Origin: Bispira polyomma
Lineage: Eukaryota
Assembly (NCBI GenBank): GCA_965649765.1
Contig: OZ287748.1
Coordinates: 71,982,001 to 72,046,000, forward strand
Direction: 5' to 3'
DNA length: 64,000 nucleotides
In this document: in pieces, positions 3,706 to 53,900 of the stretch
Position numbering within the stretch: position 1 is the first letter of the stretch
Layout of the letters: each line of letters opens with the position of its first letter
The notes under the pieces: generated by a model
What the model saw: only the letters and a program-made list of their open reading frames with translations
Told to the model about the DNA's origin: nothing
The model's database searches: none
Translations under genes and position numbers: made by a program

Positions 3706-4006
3706 TACATAAAGTACATACCAGTCTGTGATCATTGTATTAGTGGTATTTGTCTGGACAAATACCTGATCCAATTGAAGTTGTTTCTTGTTGTTTTCAC
3801 CAATAAACTTCTAAAAGCCTGGTCCACTTCTAAACCATTACAGAGATGAAATATTTAAAGGCAGAATTCCATGTCTAAAGTTATACTGCCAGTGAAGGTC
3901 ACAGTATTAGATATGCTCCTTGTTATTTGACAAGAAACAAAACAATGTAGATACTTCTCTTCGGAGCTCCTAAAGTGACAAAGTAAGGACGGAGAATCTT
4001 TTTATC

Positions 4007-4510
4007 TTGTTACCTAAAGGTAGTAAGTCATTACCTTAAGAAAGTATATTGTTACGTGAAGATAGAAAGTCGCTACCTCAAGATAATATATTGTTACCTC
4101 TAGATAAAAAGTTGTTACATCAAGATAATAAGTGCATACTCAAGATAATAAGTGGTTACCTGAAGATAGAAAGTTGTTACCTCAATTAGTATATTCTTAC
4201 CTCAAGATAGTATATTGTTACCTCAAGATAGAAAATTGTTATCTCAAGATAGTATTGTTACCTTAAGATGGAAAGTCATTCCCTCAAGTTAGAACGTTGT
4301 TACCTCAAGATAGTATATTGTCAGCTGAAGATAGGAACTTTTTACCTCAATTAGTATACTGTTACTTCAAGATAGTATATTGATACCTGAAGATAGGAAC
4401 TTGTTAAATTAGCATATTGTTACTTCAAGATAGTATATTGGTACCTGCAGATAGGAACTTGTTACCTCAATTAGTATATTGTTACCTCAAGATAGAAATT
4501 CATTACCTAG
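4007..4510. repeat. Minisatellite, ~20-21-bp unit (ttgttacctcaagatag[aaag/tatat]), roughly 24 copies
   Basis: Directly visible head-to-tail units with no unique spacers. Confidence 0.9.
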
Positions 4511-6734
4511 GGTTATTTTGCTCTACAAAATATTTGTAGAATTTGAAGAATATTGGTCATTTGCACAATTTTGCATAGAATTTAGTTTCTCAATCACTGA
4601 ACACTGTTCTTTTATTTTGTTTTCATCATTGTTTTAGTCTGTTTAAGAATATTCAAAACCTGAACAAGAAGGAGAAAGCTATCGTATATATATATTATCA
4701 GGCATACAAAAATACACAGAGCCCCAAAAATTAATGTATTTTAAGAGGTTCCCATTGATATATATGTGTCTAAATTATAAACTTCAAGCTGGGATGTTTA
4801 AGACAGAAACATATTAGCTCTAGACTCGCCCTTTTAGCCACATATCCGGTCATTAATTTGTCTGGGTGTAGATGAGAGAGACTATTTTAAGACAGCAAGC
4901 CTGACATAGATTCCACACAGTCAAACAAAAAGAGCTTTGTCTCCGTTAGAATGCGGCACATGAAGTTTAAAACCCAACTCTGCATATTTCAGTATGGCAT
5001 TCATCAAGGAACGTTTCAAATTAACTATGATAGCCTTGTCTAAGACTCACATTTTTTTATTTATTTCAGATTAGTTTCATTTATTGATCCATTCAAACAC
5101 ATGATGCATAGCTAACACAATATAAAAAATCATGAAAGTTAGAAGAATTACACAAGAGAAACATATTTGCAAACTGAAAGAGATAGAATTAATAGACAGT
5201 TTTAAATTAGATATAACTCCAAATATTTGATTTACATTATTTAATACAGAAGTAATCAAGCAAACAAATGAATTCTTCAACACTAATTGCAGAACCAGTT
5301 GCTCTGTGATACAAAAACATCCCTAATAATTAATCGCATATTAACATAAAGTATTTCAATAGCTACCTAGAGTAGTGGTGGCCTATTGGTTAGAAGTGTC
5401 TGGTTCATAATCACTGGGGGTACTTGGTCAAGGGTTTTGTGCACCGCGAACCACCGTCCAACGCCAAGTCCACTGCCAATGTTTCCAGATATATAAGCCA
5501 TGGCTGAGCACACATGAGATATAGTTAGTAGTTTGTGGGAAAAGAATGGAGGAATAAAAGTTCATTTCCGTTAGTAACCTTGTACATTCAACTGACCAGA
5601 AATGTTAAAAGTTCATAAATAACTAATTCCACAATATAACTTATTTTTTATGGAATGTCCATAGTTTTTGTGGAAAATTCAATAGTTTGTTTTAATATTT
5701 TGTGAATTATCCATGATTATGTGTCACAACTATTATACTGGGGAATAAATTTTACCTAATAAGCTTGAATTTTGTGGAAATAAATTTCCAGTGAAAAAAA
5801 GTAAAATAGCCAATAGTGAAACATCTATTATGTTTCTAAAAATCTTCTCTATTAAATCTGGCCTTTTTGAGATGACGTGAGCTGTTGAAAGTGATGTAAA
5901 TCCCAACTATTATTAAGATTGCTTCTGATACTGTCCACATGTATACACTATCTTAGAAACCACATGGAGATGTGATAGTCTAGTGGTTTTAAGTGTCTTG
6001 TTCACCATCACTGCCCTCTCAACAATGTGAGTCAGAAACCTGTTCACTTATTTATGTGGAAACGTTTGTCACAGGTTACTTCCACCTGTTAAATCTTGCC
6101 GTCTTGATGTGACCTAAGCTATTGAAAGTGACACATAAAATCCAATCAAATTTAAGTCTTAATAGAGCCTAGGACAAGGCTAAATCTCTAGGTGTCTGGA
6201 CTCGAATTCTCGGATATACTCAGCTCAAACTAATACTTAAATCTAGATTCTTTGTAACTCTAGATGCAGTAAACATATCTAAAATATGACTTTATATTTG
6301 AAGTCAGTATAGAAAGCTCTATTAAAATAAATGGTCACAAGTATAAGTTATTTCCATGTACAGGGATTTCCACTCATAGACTATACTTGACTTCAGTATT
6401 AGTTTGAGCATGAGTTTATTTGGCGAATGCCATTATTCTACTAGAAGTGTGAGCATTGGTTGTGTTTTTGTAAATATTTCAGGATCTTCATATATCTGGC
6501 TGCATCTTCAACACTGTCAAGGACGGCTCTGGTCACGTGTCATTGGATAAGAACCAATCAATCAACTGCCCTTTCACACCTTGACAAACAGTTGAAGGCG
6601 GTTTGAATTCGATCAACAGAACTGCAACAAAATAAGGAAAGACACCTCTGGTGATTTGAATCCCATACCAGATTGGAATCTGACCAGTAGTTCCATTTTT
6701 AGAGCTGTCATCAGTGATATTGAAAGGCTGACCG

Positions 6735-11408: not shown

Positions 11409-12986
11409 TTAATTGACATGAAAATGACTTATAATCATCTCCACCCTTCTAAAAAGTGAAAATAATAATATTAACAATGGCCTTTATGTTGTTGTATGTT
11501 GTCCTAGGTTTTTTAGTTTTTGTGCTGTATTATACCTTGTGCTTTGGCAAACGCTTTACTGTGTTTTGACTTTAATTTTGTAATATGTAACACAATGTGA
11601 ACATTTTGTATATTATGTAGTTAAATTTAAAAATATTTAATTTAAAAACAAGAATATTTGTAGACAGTCTTTATTTAGTGTTAACTTTGCTCTTATCCCT
11701 AGGATTATTAATTGTAGGCAGTCTTTATTTAGTGTTTACTTTGCTCTTATCCCTAGGATAATTCTAGGCAGTCTTTATTAACACCAGGATTATTAATTGT
11801 AGGCAGTCTTTATCATTTTAGATATAAATGTTCAGGCTTTAACACAAAGTAAAGACCTAGATCTTTTGTGAATACGGTCCCAGCTAAATAGTATGAGGGA
11901 AATATTAAGTTTTACCATACCAGCCATTAAGTTAACACAAATTCTTCATTGTTCTAAATGTATTTAGTATTTTGTATCGAAATTTATACTCATCGTATTT
12001 TTTTGCCTTTGTCTTTTCCAAAGTACTTACTGACCCTTTTTGACTGCAAATATGCATCCATTTAGCACGAGTAACTGCCATTCCCTTCACTGAAGACAAA
12101 GACTTTAGGCTAACTATTCATCAACTTTCACTTGTCGGTAGGGGGTGCCAAGACATAAGCCAAACAAATGGAATTTACAATCTAATCCGTTTCTCAAAAT
12201 CTGAGAATGTGACACACAGGAAAATATTTTTATCGGCTACATGAAAGCATAAATTGGCTGACATCTGACCAAAAAAAATTTTCCAATCAGCATATATAAA
12301 ATCAACTGACAGTTGATATAGTAATGTAGGCTACTGTACAGGTGTCACTGGCTATTTTTAATCACGAATACTGGCGAACCTAAAATTCTTCATGGTTTGG
12401 TAGCCAATTCCTCCCAATTCATCATCATTCTTACCTTTTTTCAGCTCTCGTGGTGGGGATATGAGAATACGTAGCCATTCACCATTTTTTTTGTCCACCA
12501 AAAATTTACCATGGTTGATAGGAGCTTCTTTGAAATGGCAGCTTCGTTGCAGCTTCCTAGTGCAGATATTCCCTGTATATTGCCATTCCTCATCTATCTT
12601 CTCCCTTTAATACTTTGGTCACACATACACCAATGTCGGCCAACCTAAAATTCTTTCTAGTTGGTAGTCAATTCCTCCTGATTCTTCGCCATTCTTCCCT
12701 ATTCTCCATCTCTCGCTTATCTGCATTAGGATCGTAATGTATTGGTGCATAGTCACTGACATAAAATAAAATAAATTTCCCGCCCTTTTCATGGCGGTCA
12801 ATTCAAAGAATCAAGAGAATTTTGAAGAATCAAAATTCTACATGATCCCCTAACATTCCGCATCATACACACAGCAACCTCTTCTATGTGAGACTTGGTC
12901 ATTTTGAGGGTAACCTGAAATTTACTCTGTACAACAGGAAATGAAAGATAGAGCATTGCTTGGGTAATGATAATACACATAAAGTA

Positions 12987-31109: not shown

Positions 31110-31503
31110 ATTGTAGTCACTGCTCGCAACGCATGGCTAGTCAGTCATGAAGTTGTAATACCTTACTGTATTATTTATTTACTTAAGAATTGTTTACCTA
31201 GATATACCAATCCTAGACCAGAACCTCTCTTACCTCACTACAAATCAAATTCCTTAGGGTTAAGTCAATTTCCCGCCTTTTCTCATATTTGGTCATTATT
31301 AAGTTGCAAGTTAATGAAGCAACACCTTGAAATTACATTGGAATCGGCAAATAGAGCCGCCATATTGGAAATAAGTGATCGTGCAAATGGAAACAAGCAT
31401 ATTTTATACTTATTAGACATTATTTTACGTTTATGTTCGGTGATTTTAGTCAGTTTTAACTTCTGTCATCTTATAGTGTGCCTTTTGAATTGGATATCTC
31501 ATT

Positions 31504-32871
31504 ATGGGCCGAGGAAAGAAAAAACAGGTGACTGTAGCTTTGTGTTCATGCTGTAATTATTCACACCCTTGACCAGTGGGTAATAGGTGCTGTCAAGTCA
31601 TCGAAGATGAGTTATCAGAGGCAGAAGCCAGCAGAGTCTTTTCTACTGAAGTTCATGGAGCAGAAGGTGAAACTAGCACGCCCAACTCCGTCGCCGACTC
31701 GAGTCACATTTCCGAAGATCATGTGAGTTCTGGGCAGTTTTAAAAAGACATTTTCACAGAGCAGCAGTCTATGATGAAAACACTAGTTTTCACAGTAGCT
31801 AAATTACAGGAAGACGTATCCGACTTAAAGACGTCTCGTTCGTCTTCCCCTCAGGTCCCGTCAACACCTCAGATGATTAGGCCTCAGATGGCAGCTCCAC
31901 CTAAGCTTCCAACACCACTTACACAGAACATAGGTTCTTCTTTACCATTCACTCAGGACTTCTCTCAGTTCCAGAACCCTGCAGCGAATTACCCAGGAGT
32001 CAACGATTTTCGTCCCCACGTTTCTCATGATACGTACCCGACACGTTACAACACTCACTTCCCAGAGACACGACCAGACCTTTTGACAACTCAACGGGAG
32101 GGTTACACTCAGGACCACGCTCAGAGGTTGCTACAGGATGCAATCTTACCTACTCCGGATGTATTAAAGCAGTCCTCTATGATACAGAACGAGGTCTCAC
32201 AACGTTTAGCCCGTTATGAGGCATGGGCTGCTGACGAATCGCTTCAAGGTAAGCTCAGTACTAAACGCAAATCTGGTCGGTACAATGTATCTGAGGTGTG
32301 TGTTACCGACCCAATAAAACGTTGGTCAAATGAAGCATCTTTATCTGGCATTAACAAGAAACGAGTTTCTTATGATGAACTTACTGTGTCACAATTTGCT
32401 GCAGGTCAATTGCAGAACATTTTAGAAGTGAGAAACCCTACTATTTCTCGCGCCATGTTAATTTAGTTAGCAGATACTTTAAAAGATGCTTCTAACATCT
32501 CCTGGCAGGTAGCCAGAGGTTCTTATGCATGCAACATGCACGATGTGGAAGAGGGGCTCCTCAGCTGGGTAGATGAAACTAGGTGGATGATGAACCGACT
32601 GTCCTATTCGCAGGCCTTAATTTCAAACGGCTCGTCTTCAAATTCAACCTCCTCGAATTCCTCCTCGGCCACCGGAAAGCATGAGATGTCATGCAAGCAC
32701 TATCAGAAGAATACGTGTCAGCATTAAAAGGACCACGAGGGCAACAACGCCATTTTTAAACATATCTGTGCCAATTGTTTTTATTTGAATAAGAAGCAGA
32801 ACGCATACCCAGAATCCAAGTGTTTTAAACTCTACGGACGACCCGCAGTGCCTACCAACACACCCCAATAG
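31504..32871 (+). pseudogene. YR element gag-like ORF (~455 codons, 4 premature stops)
   Basis: One frame from ATG 31504 (MGRGKKK..CSCCNYSHP*PVGNRC) through ORFs 31771-32466 and 32536-32727 to a C-terminal Cys/His cluster (CKHYQKNTC.H..DH...HICANC...YPESKC). Stops at 31570, 31741, 32464 and 32725. Confidence 0.85.
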
Positions 32872-33619
32872 GGGTGCGGACTTTCGACAGTCACCACAGC
32901 CAGTAGTTATATACAGTGTGTTAAACCGGATGTCGAGAATGCAGAGCAGGAGCATTGTGAGAGCATGAACTTAAGACATGAGTATAATAAGCAAAATTTT
33001 GAATTAGTTAACCAAAGGAACATTTTTATGAACAGTATGAGCTTTAGGGATGGACAGTTCCTAAATGATTGTTCTCATGATGTAGTCACGACAGATGGAC
33101 AAAATAGCGTTTCGTGTAGTAGAGATTCAGCTTCATATCCTGTTGGTCACAAGTTGTGTCCAGCAAAAATTGATGTCAGTAATGGTTTTATTGCAACCTC
33201 TTTTTTGGTTGTCTAGTAATCACAGTTATTATGGCCTTAAAGGCCCAGTGTATTATATTGTTTGTAATGTTGACCCCAGTGTGTCAGGTGTATACACTTG
33301 GGTCTTCTTTCAAGGTCAATGGTCACTTCAGAAACATGATCTCTCTCTGATAAAAATGTGGCCAATCAGTTTTGTTCACACATTATCTGTACCTGTTTTA
33401 GTTAGAAAGACTGTTTCACATAGCAAGGTTCAACCTTTACCAAGACCTAAGAAGGTCACTCATACCCGTACAAAAATCAGTTCTTCTGATTATTATATTA
33501 ACATCATTGACAACATTTGTAGACAAACCACACAAACAACATACAACAAGCATATAAACACACATGTGAATGACAAGTTCCTTTCATGAAACCATACAAT
33601 AACTGAGGACACACATATA

Positions 33620-35455
33620 GTGACCAACCTTCCACAGGACGTTGTACTACAAAACGATTCCATACAGGACTCGTTCACAGTTGAAAAAATTTTGAATGAG
33701 GACATTTTACCTACGGACCAAAGAACTTATGGCTTCATCTCTCAAGGGAGAAACCAATTTTACTTCATAAGACCAGACAGACAACAGGTAGACTTGACTT
33801 CTTATGATAAGTTAATTGAAGTAGCTGACATCATAAAAACTACTAAGGTACCAAATTACAGACAAGCGCGTTTCTCCATCAAAAGTGATCTCAATGTTCT
33901 CAATTGGAAGAAATACTTAGTCGATTATCCGGATCAAATTGTTTTGCAGTATGTAGAATTCGGGTTTCCTATATCTCTGTATGAGAGGGACAGATTGAAG
34001 GTCATAAATGTCAAAAACCATTATTCGGCTATGACGTTTCCACAAGCCATTGAGAAGTATTTTGTTACAGAAGTAGCTAAGTGCACCATAGTGGGCCCTA
34101 TTTTAGAAAAACTTCACCCGGATATACATTGTTCACCTTTATTAACTGTACCCAAAGATACTGATCAGCGTTGTTTAGTCCTAAACCTTTCTCACCCCCT
34201 TGGACAATCTGTAAATGATTGTACAATTAAAAATAAATATGATAACGTCGAGTTTAACTTAAGGTTACCTACCATTGATCAAATTACTACCCGTATTGTT
34301 GAGTTAGGAGCTAAGGCCACCTTAGCGAAAGTGTACGTCGCTCACGCGTTTAGAAATTTAAGAATTGATTCTTTTGATTGTTTGAAGTTAGGTTACTTTT
34401 GGAAAAATAATTATTTCATTGATCTTAGTTTAACTTTTGGACTCACCCACGGCACGGCGGCCTTTATGATGGTTTCTGATTGTATTACTTATATTGTTAG
34501 ACAGAAAGGGTATATAGTCTACAATTATATAGATGATTTCATACTCATTGAGACTGAAGATAAGGCTGACTTAGCTTATACTACTTATACTATTCTAGCA
34601 GACCTAGGTCTCCCCATTAATGCGAAGAAACTAGTTCCCCCCAGTAAGCGTGTAACTTGCATGGGTATCACCATTGACATAGACCTTGAAACACTCAGTA
34701 TTGAACAAACTAAATTAGACTCCATATTTGATACCTGTGTAGAATGTAAATACTTGCATAAAGTACGTAAACAGAAGTACCAGTCACTGCTGGGAAAGTT
34801 ATTGTACATACAGCGCTGTGTAACGAATTCTCAGATATTTATGAACAGAATGTTAACTTTATTAAGGCAGTCCGCTAGTAGTAAAACAGTACTTTTGACA
34901 AGCGAATTTCATAAGGATTTACAATGGTTCTTAACTTTTCTCAGACAATTCAATGGTACAACTAAGTACCCATACTTGGATAGTTCACGTGACGTTCTAC
35001 TACAAGTCGACGCTTGTTTATCCAGAATCGGTGGGATTTCTGGTTTAGAGGTTTTCAAAGCCCCTCTACCATGCTTCCTTAAACAAACACTTTCCATTGT
35101 CCATTTTGAAATGGTCAGTATTCTCATAGCTTTCGAATTATGGGGTCACAAATGGAGTAATAAAAAGATCAAGATACAATCGGATAACATGGCTGTGGTG
35201 TCTGTTGTACAGTCATCCAGAACCAGAGACGACTACTCAGGCTTGTGTTTAAGGAATATCTGGCAGATCTGTGCCTTAAGGAATATTGACTTGACTATCA
35301 GACATATACCTGGCAAGGATAACATAATAGCAGACGCTCTATCTAGGTGGTTTGAACTAGACCATTATGATAGTACAATAAAACAAGAACTCGTAGACAA
35401 CTTCACCATGCATGACATACCTATTGAATTTTTTACCTTAGATACTTATGTGTAA
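33620..35455 (+). CDS. YR element reverse transcriptase-RNase H
   Basis: HCSPLLTVPK, LVLNLS, FGLTHG, YIDD. RNase H VDAC, E, SDN, NIIADALSR. The first RT Asp appears as Tyr (AKVYVAHAFR). The frame extends upstream to 33086 through a TGA at 33587. Confidence 0.93.
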   Translation: MTNLPQDVVLQNDSIQDSFTVEKILNEDILPTDQRTYGFISQGRNQFYFIRPDRQQVDLTSYDKLIEVADIIKTTKVPNYRQARFSIKSDLNVLNWKKYLVDYPDQIVLQYVEFGFPISLYERDRLKVINVKNHYSAMTFPQAIEKYFVTEVAKCTIVGPILEKLHPDIHCSPLLTVPKDTDQRCLVLNLSHPLGQSVNDCTIKNKYDNVEFNLRLPTIDQITTRIVELGAKATLAKVYVAHAFRNLRIDSFDCLKLGYFWKNNYFIDLSLTFGLTHGTAAFMMVSDCITYIVRQKGYIVYNYIDDFILIETEDKADLAYTTYTILADLGLPINAKKLVPPSKRVTCMGITIDIDLETLSIEQTKLDSIFDTCVECKYLHKVRKQKYQSLLGKLLYIQRCVTNSQIFMNRMLTLLRQSASSKTVLLTSEFHKDLQWFLTFLRQFNGTTKYPYLDSSRDVLLQVDACLSRIGGISGLEVFKAPLPCFLKQTLSIVHFEMVSILIAFELWGHKWSNKKIKIQSDNMAVVSVVQSSRTRDDYSGLCLRNIWQICALRNIDLTIRHIPGKDNIIADALSRWFELDHYDSTIKQELVDNFTMHDIPIEFFTLDTYV

Positions 35456-36452
35456 TGTCAGATACCTCTGACTCAGCCTCCTCACTGATCAAAGGAGCTT
35501 TGAGACGACTAGGACAAAGCCACAGACCTAGGACACAAAGACAATATGATAGCCAGTTCAGACTTTTCTTGAGCTTTACAGTTTACTTTGATTTGAGGCA
35601 AACCTTTAGCTTTAACAGCATTATAGCCTTTTTAGAATTTATGACACAAACAGGTGTCTCTTACAAAGTATTGAGTAATTACTTATCTGCCATTAGGCAC
35701 AACACAAAAATCCTTAACATTCAGCAAACAGATCTTTATGACCCTAGATTGCCATTATATTTGAGGTCATTAGAACTCACTTCGAAATACACACCTCGGG
35801 TCAAAGGGGTATTTGATTTGCACCAATTGCAACAAATTTCACAAGCTTGTAACCAGTTTAAATTTCCTGACTTATTCAGAACAGCTTTTTTGTTTGCTTA
35901 TTTTGGATTTTTACGCATTTCTAACCTGACCACCACATCAGATCTCCCCTGTGACCCTACCAGACACCCAACAAGGGCTGACGTGTTGCTCGCCCCCCCC
36001 CCCCCCCCCCCGGCATTCACCTCATATTACAATGGAGTAAGACTAACCAAACCAGAAAAAATCCAGATATTATACAACTACCAGAACTCTCAAACCCATG
36101 GCTCTGTCCTGTGAGGGCAGCCACTTCCCTATTTAACAAATACCCTCTGGCCCCTTCTTACCCATTACTAGCAAACCCACTAGATAAAGGCCAGTGCCTT
36201 TCAAACTCGAGCTTAATGCATACTCTTAGTACTATTTTAACGCAGTTGAATATCCCAAAAGAAGGGCATTCTTTCCATTGCTTCAGGCGTTCAGGAGCCT
36301 CCTTGGCATTCAATGCTAACGTCAAACTTCAGCATATCCAAAAGCATGGATGCTGGAAGTCAGATGCTGTTTCGTCTTACCTTCAATCTACCTCTCATGT
36401 TTCCATAATTATTCCAACCACTTTCGCATCCCTCGTCTCTTCTACTTTCTAA
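35455..36452 (+). pseudogene. YR element tyrosine recombinase, frameshifted at a C19 run (35993-36011)
   Basis: Joined frames give FGFLRISN, WSKT, LCPVRA, HSFHCFRRSGA, HGCWKSDAVSSY, i.e. the R-K-H-R-H/W-Y catalytic set. Confidence 0.93.
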
Positions 36453-36647
36453 TTTGGCTTTGGCATTTTAAATTTTTTAATCAAAAATTTATTGTACAGT
36501 TGTATATAGAGACGAGTAGCTAGAATAAAATTATCCCAAACAGCATCTGATTCCTCACTCTCAATAACTATGACCTTTAAAGGTCATTCCTTACACCTCA
36601 AGGTCAGAACAACATTGGTTCAATCTCTCACCACAACAAAAACGACT

Positions 36648-38225
36648 GAGGTGTTTATCCTTTTTAGGTATGAGATTAATTACCCCCCGGCCTCTGACTC
36701 TCTGACAGTTCACCATTCTCAAAGACATTTGAGAAACTTTTAAACACATGGTCACCTATTTCAGTCCAAAAGGTCATGTAAAATTCACAAGGTATTCCAT
36801 CGGGTCCTGGTGTTTTATTATTAGCCAGATAATTTACAGTTTTTTTAACTTCTTCAAATGTAATGGCTTCTTCACAAAGAGATTTACTTCTATCAGATAT
36901 GATGGGAATATTGACATTGCTTGGATATTTTTCCACATTAAGTTGTGATTTATCCATATTTGTATTCAATTCAGAGTATAGTTTTGAGAAATATGTAACT
37001 AGAATATCATCAGGCTTAGTAAACCTTTTGTCTTTGTGCATTGGATCACAAATGTGTTTAACATTATGATTGGCCTTTTCTAGATTTAGAAAGTATTTAG
37101 TGGGTTTCTCAAAATCCTCCAAAAACTTACATCTCGACCTTATGAATGAACTGTGTGCCCTTTCATCGTGTAAATCCTCTAATTGTTTTTTGATGAGATT
37201 GTACTCTTCAATACAACCTAATATTGGAGTACTACAGATATTTTCCTCCACTTTAATCAGTCGTTTTTTTTCTAAATTTCTAAATTCAATTTTTTTTCTT
37301 TTACTTTACTTAATGGAAAAAGTAATTGACTCAGTTCTTATCATACATTTTATGAAATCCCATGATTTAGAAATGTCTTACAAATTTTTCGAATCATTAA
37401 CTACATTCTTAATGACCGTTTTCATAAAGTCAACATATTCTTTATCTTTCAGTAGGCTTACATTTAACTTCCACAAGCCTCTCCCCTTTTTTGTTTATGA
37501 TCTAGAATTAATGAAATTTTGAGTAAGTTATGGTCAGACTTTATACTAGGTAGAATTTTGACTACTTTTGTATTGTATTCTAGGCCACATGATACAAGGA
37601 AAAAGTCAATTCTAGATTGTTGAAAGCCAGAACGTGTTTTTTCTCATCTTATATATCGAGTGGTATCAGAGTGTTTTATTCTTCAGATAACATCTAAAGG
37701 AATCATCAACTGTGACAAATGCTTTATATAACCTGGGTTTTTACACAAGATACTTGTATCATGGATGCTATATAGATTTATATTAAAATCACCCCCAATT
37801 ACAATGCTTCCACCAACATAGTTTAAAAGACTGTTTAATAAATATTTCCCAAAGATCTATTGTTCCGGTGTTTTGTCTATTATAGGAGCATACAAATTAA
37901 CAATTATGTATCTCTGGTCTGATATTGTACAATCTAGCAGTAGAAATCTACCAAAGTCATCATTTTTTATATCCAATATAACCATATCTATGCCAGGGGA
38001 AGTTAATATTGCAACTCCTCTACTATTTGAGGTACCATGAGAAAATTCAATTGTTCCATCCCATTGGTTTCTCCACAATTTTTCAGTGATACTTGATGAA
38101 TGAGATTCTTGTATTAGGAATAATGCAGGCCCCATCCCCTTAAACCAGGAGAAAATAGTTTGTCTTTTACATTTATCACCCAAGCCTCTTGTATTAAAGC
38201 AAAATATATTAAAAATATCACCCAT
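36648..38225 (-). pseudogene. LINE ORF2 N-terminal part (APE endonuclease and linker)
   Basis: ORFs 37857-38249 and 36676-37251 plus decayed intervening sequence (GGDFN, SRIDFFL, SDH, GLWKLN, EKPTKYFLNLEK). Confidence 0.9.
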
Positions 38226-39102
38226 TATATGCAAATATATAATCGTCATTAATTTTATCCACTGGCTTAGATACCTTTATCACCTCAAAATTGTTGGTCA
38301 TACTCCAAAAAGAAATAATGCCAAATACTGAAATGTTTTGTTACATCCTGTAGCCATGCCATTGTATTTACTATACTTAATAATATAATATACTGATCAT
38401 ATAATCACAATATATATAAGAATTAAAAAAAGCAAAAACAGACAAAAGACACAATAGTTTTACTACCTTGTCTTGCTAAAGTATTTAGAACAACAACAAA
38501 ACACATAAAAATAAACATGAAAGAACAATATACATACCATACTCTATAAACCGAACATGCCATGCTAAGTAATACATAAAAAGTGCCATATAAAAAGTGC
38601 CATCCAAATCTAACACTTTTTTTAATCCCTTGCAAAAGGCGGTCATTACTGTTAATTGATAGGTATTAAGTTAGCTTACAGTTAATATAAGTGAATCAAA
38701 GCCAAACATAGAAGAGGTGCAGTGTATCAGTATATCAATCTGAATTATTACACAATATTGTAACAACATGTATGCCACAATAATCACATGACACAATGTC
38801 AGACAGTTTGATGGCATATCATCAGCTAATAATTAATACAAGACTTGCTTGTTTTAGACAATATATTTATAACTCCCTTTATTAGACTTCTTTATGTGGA
38901 GTTATTACGTTTCAAAAATAGCATACCAATATGCCACTAAAAGAAAATGTGAGCATATTTTTAATTACTATCCTATGTGACACAGTGACAGATGTGACAC
39001 ACACATAAAACACACACAAAAAAACGCACACACTCACGTCATGTTAACTTCTTTCATCTAGGATTTTGATTTTGAGATTTACAGTAGAATTTGTGCTACC
39101 CC

Positions 39103-41142: not shown

Positions 41143-41843
41143 GCTGGACCTTAACCATTTCCCTAGTGTCCACCTTTGGAGGTATCGTTCTGGTGGCAGT
41201 CCTCACAGTATTGTACATACGTCACCGCAGAAGGCAGCAGGCCGAGTCCTTAACCAGAAACCAAGGCCCAAATGGGGTGTATTATCAGTCAGCAGACATG
41301 AAGAAAGCCGAGTACAACAAAGACCATATCAACGGCAAAAAAAGAACGGTCAGCTATTCTCCAGTAAAGAAACTCTCCTCCCCAGGCTACATAGCCGTCT
41401 ATTCCCCAGAGAAGAAAGGGTTCTCTGTCTTTGACGAGTATGACAGTGAAACATGTTGGAACAAAGGCATGGGGAATGACTACTACATTCCCGACGAAGA
41501 AAGAAAGGCCTTAGAGATGTATGTCAACCATTCTGCGCAGACGCAAAGACAGTCTTTCTCAGAGCAGAGCAAGACAGCAGACCAAAAGAGTAAAGAATCC
41601 CATACGTCAGCAATGACGTCACATAAAGCCAAGCCGATCAATAACAGTCACAGCATGACCTTAATCAGTAACAGAAAGTCACAGTACGCCGCTTGCCCTA
41701 CATTTCCGACGCCGCCTGAGAGTGACCCGGAAGTAGATCCTTTTGTAGGCCACACGTATGCCAATGTCAAGGACAGCCATCGGAGGAACGTGTATACGAC
41801 CATGCCAAGGATTAATCCCAATAGTGTTTCAGCTGTGGTGTAA
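41143..41843 (+). CDS. NETO-like gene, exon 8 (last LDLa Cys, TM helix, cytoplasmic tail, stop)
   Basis: Acceptor ttcgcag in phase 1 gives T+GC = Cys. TM LTISLVSTFGGIVLVAVLTVLYI is followed by RHRRR. Ends NSVSAVV*. Confidence 0.92.
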
Positions 41844-50199: not shown

Positions 50200-53100
50200 A
50201 CCACCTTCAAAGGTCACAACATGTTATTGGACTAGCCATAAGCAAGGGATAGATAATCATATCCCATCAACACGTCTTAAAAAGGCAGTTTTCAATCAGC
50301 ATTTTGTGAACTAATTGTTCACAGTACAGCAGTACAGTGTTAGATAGCTATATAATATCTTGAGTCACACAAATGAAGTGTTCGTCTGATTATTACAATA
50401 ATTTCTGAATTCATCAGTATCACAGCAAAGAACAGGTCGGGATTGAAAACCATGGGCCTATGACACCTAATCGCCTAGCAGTGGACGAATTCCTCAAGGT
50501 CAGAAGGTGATACCTTACAAGTTCCAGATATTTGTTGGACACAAATAAAGATAGTTTGAGATGTTTATTATATACATATTAGTAAGGTATATCGGTATAA
50601 AAGTATCACAGAGGTACATGTAAGGGGTACTAAAGCAGCTTTATGGGTTGAATTTAGATATGTCCACACAGCCGAGGACCTCCACAGACAATGGGACATA
50701 ATATTCTAGAAAGAAACATTATTATTAAAAGCAAAGGTAGTCTCTGATCTGTGAAAAACTTAGAAGCTATGTCGTTGGAGTGGAATTCCCAAATGGGTTA
50801 ATACTTTTTTCAAAGCATTTCTGACATGTGGAGATGTCAATGCTGTGAACAGTGGGGAAGAAGAGTTAAGCCAGAACAATGACTATATTTACCATTTATA
50901 GGTGTACAATGGATAAATCTTGACCGTATATGTTGTAATATGGTGTTGCATATACTTGATCCGTCCGTATAACACCCATACCTGTTAAGCAAGCATCAAG
51001 ATAAATTGTGTGCTTTATGTTAGTTTCCAACGGTTTCATAAACACAACACTGTTAAATTTTAGAAAGAAATTTAGGAACCACTGGATGTCGCTGCAAATG
51101 CTGCCATTGATTTCAAACCGACTTGCTCCAGGATTATTTCTAAACTTCATTACAGGTCTATTTATGAAGACCCTGGCTGAACGCACACATTTGTGCAGAC
51201 AGAAATTTATCTCAAACAGATTGAAATTTGCTACGCAAAATCCATTTTTTATTTTTCTGTAATTTTTTCTTGTGTAATACTAATATTTTAAGTCATATAA
51301 ATCCGCAAATGCTGCGTCTGCCTTATCCATTGGCGATATGCAAATGTAATCATCTATGTAGCAATGGACAATATGTCCCTTTTGACGCATAACATCATCT
51401 ACTATATCTGAGCATTGCTGAAACGCAGCACTGCTATGAACCCAGCTAAACGTGACCGCTGCATACACATAGTATTCATCATCCCAGTGTATACCAAATT
51501 TGACTGCATCGGCTGGGTTTGCTTCAAATCACAAAATGCCCTGCTACGTCCAGTTTATATATCTGAGGGTCATCCGTATTATTAATCGTGCCTACTATTG
51601 TGGGAAATTTCAATGCGTATTCAAAACGCTGTCTGTCCACATTGTCGTTTACAGATTTGCCCTTTGGGTAAGATAAGTTCAGAATCACTCATCTCTTCGT
51701 AATATCTTTGGGGCAAGTTATAAGTGGTGAGCAGTGGTAGTGCTCATTGTTAATATGTCTTAGTGGGTTAAACATAGCACCCGATGCCTTTTCTTTTTCT
51801 AGATATTCACCTACTGTTGTTTTAAATTTGAGTGCAGAGTAAAATTTTGGAATAATGCTCTCATTCAAAACATCCGGATTATTAAGCGATAAGGGAAATC
51901 AAAATTTTAAGTATTGCAGAAGCAATTGATCCGGATGATCTTGAAGCAATTGCTCCCATTGAAATATATTTAGGTCCGACTGTATAGGAATGCATGCCCT
52001 TTTGTAATGCGCTACTCCAGTAGCTATGCTAACAATTTGTTCAACAGAAGTAATTTTCACAGAGTCCTTATCTGGGCCTAAGAATTTAAAATTTGTGTCA
52101 GACAGGGCTAAAAACCCATGTTTCTCATCAGGGTGATATCAATAAATCTGGTATTCCTTAGATCATACTTGCTGCTGTTCATCTTTTTGAAACATTTCAA
52201 ATTCCTGTTTGGCATTATGCATGTCTTTCCCCTGTGTATTCAGTTCCATTTGTGTCCGTAATGTGACTACTATTCTCAAATTGCTCAACATTAATGTCAA
52301 TATTTGGGACATCCACTGTTTTAATTGTGATAGTTTCTATCACACAAAGAGGTTGGCCAGGTTAGTCTATATGAGGTAACAAAATGCAACCATTGCTAAC
52401 GCTGTGAAATTTTTTTATGGGATTTTTAGCCCTCTTTTTTCTCACTAGGGTCAAAACAAAGTATCAGGCATTTGTGATACATTATCACCTGATTCATAGC
52501 TAAGCTGAAAAGGAAAACATTCAGTGGCTTTTCGTAATGCTCTGTGCACATTTTGCTGTTTTGAAAATTTGAAATATTCACCAGTATATTGCTGAGTATA
52601 ATTTTCAACAAATGTTTTACAGTTATTTTTGTCATCACAAACACCTGTGCCATTTCTGCTAGCTATCTTGTGACTAGCAGTATCATTTACATTATTCAGT
52701 TCATAAATGTTACTTCTATTAGTATTCCCAACATTAGAATGATAATTTTTCCTTCTAACATTACTATATTGTTCAGTCAAATGATCTGATAAATTGTGAC
52801 CAGTTTAACATTTATTGTCTAATATTTTATCATTCACTCTAGCACTGTTCAGTCCCTGGAATGTTCGATCAGTTGGTTGTCAAAAAACTACCAATGTACT
52901 ACCCTGGTTTTTCTGGACTTAAATACAATTTGCCTTATAACATTTGTACTGAGGGTGGGGACTATCTTTGTGAAGCGTTTGAGCACGATACCAGCAATTA
53001 TGTTTATACCGTCCATGGTGTGCCTTATAGAAACACCGACCAGAATTGAAAAGTTACATATTGGCTTACTGTCTTGACTGTCAGAACTACCTCTAGAATG

Positions 53101-53900
53101 TGAATTTTGACCACTTGCACCTTGTAAATTAACCATGGCTGTTTGGAAGGCACTTAATTTGTTGAGGGCCCACTGTGTGCTGTCCTTCCATTCCAATCTA
53201 TTTTGTTCGATTTCATGCATATTCACTTTCCAGGCGTTTTTAACTACAGACCATGGAAGTGAAGCTGTATCCTTCAGTGTTGCAATGACCTACCTGGTCA
53301 TTTTATCTTTGGTTATGGGATCAGTTACCTGCACAATATTACACAACTGACCAGCCGCTTATTATAGAATGTAAAGTTCGTCGAAACCGGGTATCCTCTT
53401 CTTTGAAGCAGCACCCCACCTACCCTCATTAGGCCATCTACGTGTAGGGTCAGCCTACGCAACGTAGGTACAGTTAAATCTCCCAGATTTTTGGCAAGCC
53501 GGTAGTTTACCTTGCAGTAGGTTTACTCTAGCAAGTGTCTCGTATTTAGTCAGTCGCCTCCTGACTTACTGTTGTACGTCAGGCATCGACTTCAGCACGT
53601 TCAGCGTCGGAACTATACTGTCCTGAGAAAACTCTTGCTGTGTAGGTCGGCCCTGCAGCATGAGTTTTGCAGTCATGGGTATATAGGTGTGTCACCTTCA
53701 ATTTTGGAATTTATTATGGAGAAATTATCAGGGACAATGGTTCAGTTGGGGTAGCATTGGTCTCGATACGGGTCTTGACAGAAGAATTCATCCGAATGTG
53801 CCTACACTATTAAGGTAGTAGTTAATTATAGTGAACTGATTGAAGGTGAAAGCAGATCCCGTGCTTATCAAATCCATAGCCATACTTTATCTGGGAGAAT
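50200..53900 (-). mobile_element. Second Ngaro-like YR retrotransposon, heavily decayed with internal deletions; ends approximate
   Basis: Minus-strand remnants colinear with element 1: gag (LQGKL...KSGRFN, MHEIEQNRLEWKD, Cys/His cluster), RT (CSPLITCPKD, HCYIDDY), RNase H (YLDACLTGMG) and YR C-terminus (HSF*VFHRS...SHCLWRSSAVWTYL, ~50600-50880). Confidence 0.9.

Follow-up and report, generated by a model that had tools for sequence, protein, structure and literature searches.

The window analysed here is a 64,000-nucleotide (nt) stretch of DNA from Bispira polyomma (NCBI GenBank assembly GCA_965649765.1, contig OZ287748.1, positions 71,982,001 to 72,046,000 of the forward strand), and at 31111-36648 on its plus strand lies a decayed copy, 5.5 kb long, of a Ngaro-like retrotransposon that carries gag, pol and a gene for a tyrosine recombinase (YR). 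The analysis concerns how this recombinase is expressed, and comparison of the element with its relatives points to a spliced mRNA that would join the N-terminal half of Gag to YR. The features of the locus are listed below in window coordinates (aa, amino acids; ORF, open reading frame; RT, reverse transcriptase).

31111-31334, plus strand: split direct repeat A1, the 5' end of the element, a boundary common to sister copies.
31504-32871, plus strand: gag ORF, broken by four stops in this copy; 453 aa when intact.
31504-32248, plus strand: predicted coding exon 1, the N-terminal half of Gag (zinc-type motif, coiled coil, linker, helix), from the Gag alignment and the Gag model of a relative.
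32246-32254, plus strand: predicted 5' splice site AAG|GTAAGC, phase 1; the GT is kept in 32 of the 33 family copies that cover the site.
32249-35461, plus strand: predicted intron of 3213 nt, holding the Gag core, the zinc fingers and the whole of pol.
32866-32872, plus strand: CAA TAG G, the lone in-frame stop between gag and pol, a candidate for readthrough.
32872-35455, plus strand: pol, with a variable N-terminal part, RT and RNase H; disrupted 5' of 33590 in the window copy.
35440-35441, plus strand: upstream AG in phase 2, unconserved across families.
35453-35457, plus strand: TAATG, made up of the pol stop and a private G at 35457.
35448-35461, plus strand: predicted 3' splice site, phase 1, family form TAATTTCAG|, weakened at -5 in the window copy.
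35462-36452, plus strand: predicted exon 2, the tyrosine recombinase, about 325 aa in intact copies; frameshifted here.
36461-36648, plus strand: split direct repeat B1, the end of the window copy.
50604-53637, minus strand: second Ngaro-like element, diverged and decayed, with a donor CAAG|GTAAAC at 53514-53505 and its acceptor region deleted.

The boundaries of the element were set from 39 sister copies in the same genome, with identities of 88-95%. The layout is A1-gag-pol-YR-B1-A2-spacer-B2, with a spacer of about 570 nt, in 24 of these copies; the other 15 end at B1 (13 copies), have A2 only (one) or run into a tandem copy (one), and A is repeated directly after B1 in 25 of the 39. Self-comparison also revealed split direct repeats in 6 of 14 representatives of several families. 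In the intact copy L056, Gag is 453 aa long, the Pol frame, with RT and RNase H, spans 863 aa, and YR has a stop-to-stop frame of 337 aa. The RT of this copy matches the Pfam family RVT_1 above the cut-off (E 5.6e-9), its YR matches Phage_integrase (PF00589) below the curated cut-off (E 2.9e-4), and the recombinase motifs R, K, HxxR, H and Y are all present. As in Ngaro-like elements, RT/RNase H is followed by the tyrosine recombinase on the same strand, and the pol stop falls about 41 codons past the end motif of RNase H. Pfam gave no methyltransferase match in two intact Pol proteins, and no ORF of SGNH size lies between A2 and B2 in the one intact copy examined. Because the split direct repeats and the absent methyltransferase fit the definition given in the available portions of PMC9210276, PMC6681497, PMC3266345 and PMC7192593 (gag, RT/RNase H and YR, split direct repeats, no methyltransferase), the element is labelled Ngaro-like (order DIRS). 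A DIRS-like identity was considered and rejected, since it calls for inverted terminal repeats, an internal complementary region and a methyltransferase, whereas self-comparisons yielded only direct repeats and a methyltransferase was absent.

Some copies are arranged in ways that merit separate mention. The window copy and 13 of the 39 sister copies (set L031-L069) stop at B1 and lack A2, spacer and B2, the pattern expected from recombination between B1 and B2. L056 sits inside a tandem repeat array (L056 558-918 and 7398-7478), and in L061-L062 two copies of the element stand in head-to-tail order, separated by 5.2 kb.

The window copy is dead. Its gag has premature stops at 31570, 31741, 32464 and 32725, the first of them at codon 23, the 5' part of its pol is disrupted, and its YR is frameshifted at a C run (35993-36011); any expression signals that it holds are therefore inherited, and a test of them must be comparative. 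For this purpose 100 further genome stretches, picked by hand to be diverse from ranked lists in which only the top candidates carry a score, were combined with 31 metagenome contigs from other hosts, and profile anchors were placed on the Gag core, the RNase H end and the YR start. The 131 Gag anchors fall into 30 clusters, or families, at 80% identity, and 125 of the 142 YR anchors, those with at least 85 aligned columns, fall into 39. Median amino-acid identity between representatives is 28% for the Gag core and 26% for YR, and four-fold sites are 26% (gag) and 28% (YR) identical between families, that is, saturated.

The sequence-only reading of the window had proposed a donor in mid-gag, CAAG|GTAAGC, with an intron from 32249 in phase 1, and a counterpart, CAAG|GTAAAC, at the homologous QGK codons of the second element on the minus strand. 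Both are exact: 745 nt, or 248 codons plus one nucleotide, run from the ATG at 31504 to the junction, and the CAAG of the second element starts at 53514. Across the relatives, a phase-1 AG|GT is the majority state in 23 of the 30 Gag families, within 36 nt before the S-G/KSKR motif of Gag; it is in phase 0 in one family (a frameshifted copy, by eye) and in phase 2 in none, and control windows in gag contain a phase-1 AG|GT in 4.7% of 360 cases. Sites were selected on AGGT only, yet position +3 is A in 24 of 24 and position +5 is G in 14 of 24. The encoded residues vary (QGK, SGK, TGM, SGT, SGI, TGI, RGR, RGK, SGS) around a glycine that is nearly invariant in the Gag alignment: the residue before it is Q, S, T or R, with a codon always ending in A, and the residue after it is K, M, T, I, R or S, with a codon always starting with A. 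Other glycine codons use all four forms, and 9 of 138 read xxA GGT; the glycine of the S-G motif, a few codons away, also uses all four, with A GGT in 0 of 17. What is kept at the donor, beyond coding need, is the U2-type consensus AG|GTRAG.

At the start of YR, the AG at 35460-61 had been read as a phase-1 acceptor, which is exact, and this acceptor, like the donor, is more than chance would give. A phase-1 YAG is the majority state in 35 of the 39 YR families at a distance of 48-75 nt upstream of the threonine in the RPxT motif, compared with eight families for phase 2 and four for phase 0, and a pick of YAG blind to phase landed in phase 1 in 33 of 37 family representatives. Of these 37, 34 have T at -6 and 33 have T at -5. 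Families differ in the residues encoded across the acceptor (S, V, T, L, I, P), and in the closest cases stops in the YR frame lie only 3-5 codons upstream. The acceptor thus has the U2-type form of a T-rich tract followed by YAG, and its phase equals that of the donor. A second AG at 35440-41, previously suggested as an alternative acceptor that would give Gag(N)-DTYV and a stop, is present in phase 2, within the pol codons TTA GAT, and is kept in 39 of 39 family copies; across families its conservation fails, an AG at that distance being confined to 4 of 37 representatives and other nearby AGs upstream being spread over all three phases, and it was rejected as a conserved alternative. The second element was set aside as a test of the acceptor, the end of its pol and the 5' two-thirds of its YR being deleted.

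Both signals are in phase 1 in 76 of the 95 elements that hold both anchors, at a spacing of 2168-3647 nt, and metagenome contigs from other hosts show the same donor and acceptor signals. Among the 19 misses is the window copy itself, on account of a private G at 35457 that replaces the T at acceptor position -5. The conservation of donor and phase-1 AG beyond amino-acid need, which the sequence-only reading had named as a check, is found in most families, and phase-matched sites so conserved across saturated families argue for the splicing of YR that it proposed. Very probably, a spliced mRNA joins the mid-gag donor to the YR acceptor and encodes a Gag(N)-YR fusion of about 570 aa, about 248 of them from Gag, the YR frame of the window family having no start codon of its own.

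Several points weigh against this reading, in addition to the slippery heptamers and in-frame methionines given with the alternatives below. All support for the splice comes from comparative DNA, and donor and acceptor are paired by phase only. The 19 of 95 elements that lack one or both in-phase signals do so mostly through single changes or shifts of 1-2 nt in decayed copies (by eye). Seven of the 30 Gag families are without a majority phase-1 donor; six without a majority site are a ten-member family with phase-1 sites at scattered offsets, a three-member family with shifted sites, three single decayed copies, and L191, from another host, which keeps a phase-1 acceptor and has no donor at the usual place. 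Control windows in YR coding sequence also contain a phase-1 YAG in 39% of cases, compared with 26-27% for the other phases. By eye, CTAAT or TTAAC occurs at about -23 to -27 in some families, at no common position that would resolve a branch point. Moreover, the donor window and the acceptor window (-75..-48) were fixed after the data had been seen, and the families, separated by a single-linkage cut at 80%, share ancestry and are not independent trials; the argument is one of conservation at saturated sites rather than of independent trials.

A -1 ribosomal frameshift in the short pol/YR overlap, which would deliver YR as Gag-Pol-YR or Pol-YR, has been proposed for Ngaro elements in a review (Poulter and Butler 2015, as quoted in section 3.4 of PMC13003380) and is here an improbable route. 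The -1 relation is the commonest between pol and YR, and 25 of 33 members of the window family have a -1 overlap of 28 nt, but that overlap contains no X XXY YYZ heptamer, and, if a single frameshifted member of one family is set aside, 35 of 36 evaluable families lack a canonical heptamer. Across families YR is in the -1, +1 or 0 frame relative to pol or does not overlap it: the relation is +1 in every evaluable member of three multi-copy families (3/3, 4/4, 3/3), and in one family 3 of the 4 members lack the overlap, as do six single-copy families. PMC3783388 states, without comment on splicing, that fungal Ngaro elements may have YR either in frame or in a shifted frame, which agrees with a frame relation that can vary freely. 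Folding of the RNA after the overlap is unremarkable (z 0.50 and -0.88), and a frameshift would leave the donor unexplained. In favour of slippage are A AAT TTA in the overlap of one family (5 of 8 members) and, by eye, T TTA AAC in two decayed relatives, and in the clade with these heptamers slippage may coexist with splicing. The overlap heptamers of slippery type are located in L159-L169, L155 and L157, a clade related to the second element of the window.

The junction of gag and pol, which was evaluable for 81 of the 131 Gag anchors, behaves differently from that of pol and YR. The same heptamer scan found A AAA AAC or A AAA AAT there in 9 of 21 evaluable families, so the scan is not blind. 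In the Gag cluster of the window, gag ends in a single in-frame stop, mostly CAA TAG G, beyond which, in 35 of 37 evaluable members, the 0-frame stays open for 50 codons. An in-frame TGA C occupies this position in several distant contigs. RNA structure at the gag stop is inconsistent, with z scores of -1.54, -2.91 and 0.94 in three copies. The mode of gag/pol recoding appears to switch between lineages.

A similarly small probability attaches to a real acceptor with other partners: it may pair with a different donor, such as one in the 5' leader or in repeat A, or with several, the mid-gag donor may serve another acceptor, and YR may begin at a downstream or non-AUG start. Pairing by phase leaves room for this, and L191 has the acceptor without the donor, but an acceptor fed by a non-coding exon need not hold phase, and both sites are in phase 1 in 76 of 95 elements. 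A methionine lies between acceptor and RPxT in only 7 of 37 representatives, and in the window family about 60 codons of the recombinase precede the first methionine.

Termination-reinitiation at the pol stop, or initiation at a nearby AUG, is a still weaker candidate and very unlikely. The sequence-only reading had drawn attention to the overlap TAATG at 35453-57, which is indeed present in the window copy, but the G is private: position 35457 is T in 39 of 39 sister copies (TAA TTTCAG, intact in 38 of them and preceded in one by a 4-nt deletion just upstream), and therefore the YR frame of the family has no start codon there. Reinitiation at the pol stop is thereby refuted for the window family by one of the refuting observations that the sequence-only reading had named, an ATG missing from the family consensus, and the only copy with TAATG is a dead one; TAATG is an artefact of decay. 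UAAUG is used for coupled termination-reinitiation in SART1, influenza B BM2 and the hypovirus CHV1, and the likeness of the element to these systems is confined to the pentanucleotide, which is private to the window copy. Elsewhere, an ATGA overlap occurs in the single-copy family L173, and in one clade an in-frame ATG comes a short way ahead of the acceptor, but an ATG that is open, in frame and within -9..+11 of the pol stop is limited to 6 of 114 evaluable loci (36 families). Of 37 representatives, 21 have no in-frame methionine from the upstream stop to RPxT; the other 16 have one near the YR start, in six cases within a common ACTATG/GCTATG motif about 5 codons before the acceptor, and internal YR starts may operate in some clades. 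This motif, 15-20 nt before the acceptor in the L254, L236, L256, L277, L271 and L240 families, supplies an in-frame ATG and could mark either a branch site or a genuine start codon in its clade.

A reading without any splicing, in which the motifs arise as a side effect of protein constraint and A+T-rich composition, is scarcely credible: the donor glycine is nearly invariant and the window DNA has a G+C content of 35%, but the third positions do not vary although synonymous sites are saturated, the neighbouring S-G glycine does not share the A GGT form, and the acceptor residues vary and are often cut off by stops just upstream.

Traces of the spliced product were also sought. The predicted joint was absent among 15 of 22 joints from two runs of unrecorded kind, both from one study, with contigs covering all 30 bins. 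A degenerate junction pattern for the clade of the window gave 0 matches to intron-less genomic copies; the 40 scored among 130 YR-start candidates were the same 40 copies with pol upstream, and of 130 matches to the Gag-N helix in the loci examined, 0 had a YR start within 600 nt. The absence of intron-less copies is neutral because spliced RNA may lack packaging signals. Among database proteins, no Gag-YR fusion was found among 3099 longer candidates, and no Gag profile match at E < 0.05 was found among the best 150 of 4075 YR relatives, an absence that weighs little because the database entries look like unspliced ORF calls. Many of these YR relatives start with a hydrophobic run and then S/T/V/L-G/D/E, as readthrough of TTnYAG|G would give; this was noted by eye, uncounted, and is not used as evidence.

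The retained part of Gag has a recognizable organization. In the alignment, exon 1 of most families encodes a C-X2-C-X3-H-X6/7-C motif, a coiled coil and a conserved helix, with variable low-complexity linkers between them. In a Gag model of a relative (26 sequences, mean predicted local distance difference test score (pLDDT) 68.5, predicted template modelling score 0.37), the donor Gly166 is placed in a low-confidence linker (162-173, pLDDT < 50) between the conserved helix and a well-predicted helical core; a fold search with this model returned coiled-coil matches only, the best at Z 5.2. The fusion would be without the Gag core and the C-terminal zinc fingers, and its co-assembly with Gag is a hypothesis.

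Expression of the element by splicing could then proceed as follows. A single transcript from repeat A would either stay unspliced or be spliced by the U2 spliceosome of the host. The unspliced RNA would serve as genome and as message for Gag and Gag-Pol, the latter made by UAG readthrough in the window family and by -1 frameshifting at A AAA AAC in other families, and the spliced RNA would lose the Gag core and pol. More speculatively, the retained zinc-binding motif, coiled coil and helix may let the fusion co-assemble with full-length Gag and so carry the recombinase to the complementary DNA, and splicing efficiency may set the amount of recombinase. We consider it somewhat more probable than the contrary that Gag(N)-YR splicing is the ancestral and general route in animal Ngaro-like elements, with one promoter, with readthrough and frameshifting for Gag-Pol interchangeable between lineages while splicing is fixed, and with the zinc motif and coiled coil loading YR into the particle.

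The surroundings of the element hold further features. Directly beside B1, at 36676-38400 on the minus strand, is a fragment with a KTPGPDG motif that resembles ORF2 of a non-LTR (long terminal repeat) retrotransposon. A plus-strand segment at 41144-41843, with an acceptor-like ttgtatttcgcag, a hydrophobic helix and a hydrophilic tail, looks like the final exon of a host gene, and the Ngaro-like element may be sense-oriented within an intron of that gene. A degenerate 21-nt tandem array occupies 4000-4540, and two related blocks with inverted arms, at 343-1128 and 12985-13474, resemble remnants of small DNA transposons.

Splicing and introns go unmentioned in the available portions of PMC9210276, PMC3783388 and PMC3266345, and literature searches, outside which lay subscription papers, Repbase, supplements and Goodwin and Poulter 2004, found no paper on spliced YR expression. 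The spliced Gag(N)-YR is in all likelihood a new expression variant in a known retrotransposon group, in which expression of the recombinase has so far been left to a frameshift proposal. If it is moreover the general route in animal Ngaro-like elements, the annotated YR ORFs of this group are second exons and the true enzyme is 150-250 residues longer. Such a variant would alter the annotation of these abundant elements, and biochemists and engineers who work with the recombinases would have to use a corrected protein. It would also add a case of a retroelement with the whole of pol inside an intron, fusing a structural module to an integrating enzyme. Two exact splice sites are named, and RNA-seq from any animal with active Ngaro elements could decide the matter.

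Spliced subgenomic mRNAs are made for retroviral and gypsy env and for foamy virus pol, and in these the spliced gene is not known to be fused to half of Gag. With them, and with the shGAG of Ty1/Copia elements, the proposed scheme would share one promoter and a division between unspliced genomic RNA and a spliced mRNA that sets the protein ratio. In Copia (EVD), splicing yields a Gag-only mRNA according to the available text of PMC5580714, whereas here the intron would hold the whole of pol and the product would combine half of Gag with the integrating enzyme. The closest likeness in structure is to Ngaro elements, with gag, RT/RNase H and YR on one strand, the A1...B1 A2...B2 arrangement and no methyltransferase; the published route to their recombinase, as quoted in PMC13003380, is a -1 frameshift, whereas the DNA of the window family points to a spliced Gag(N)-YR.

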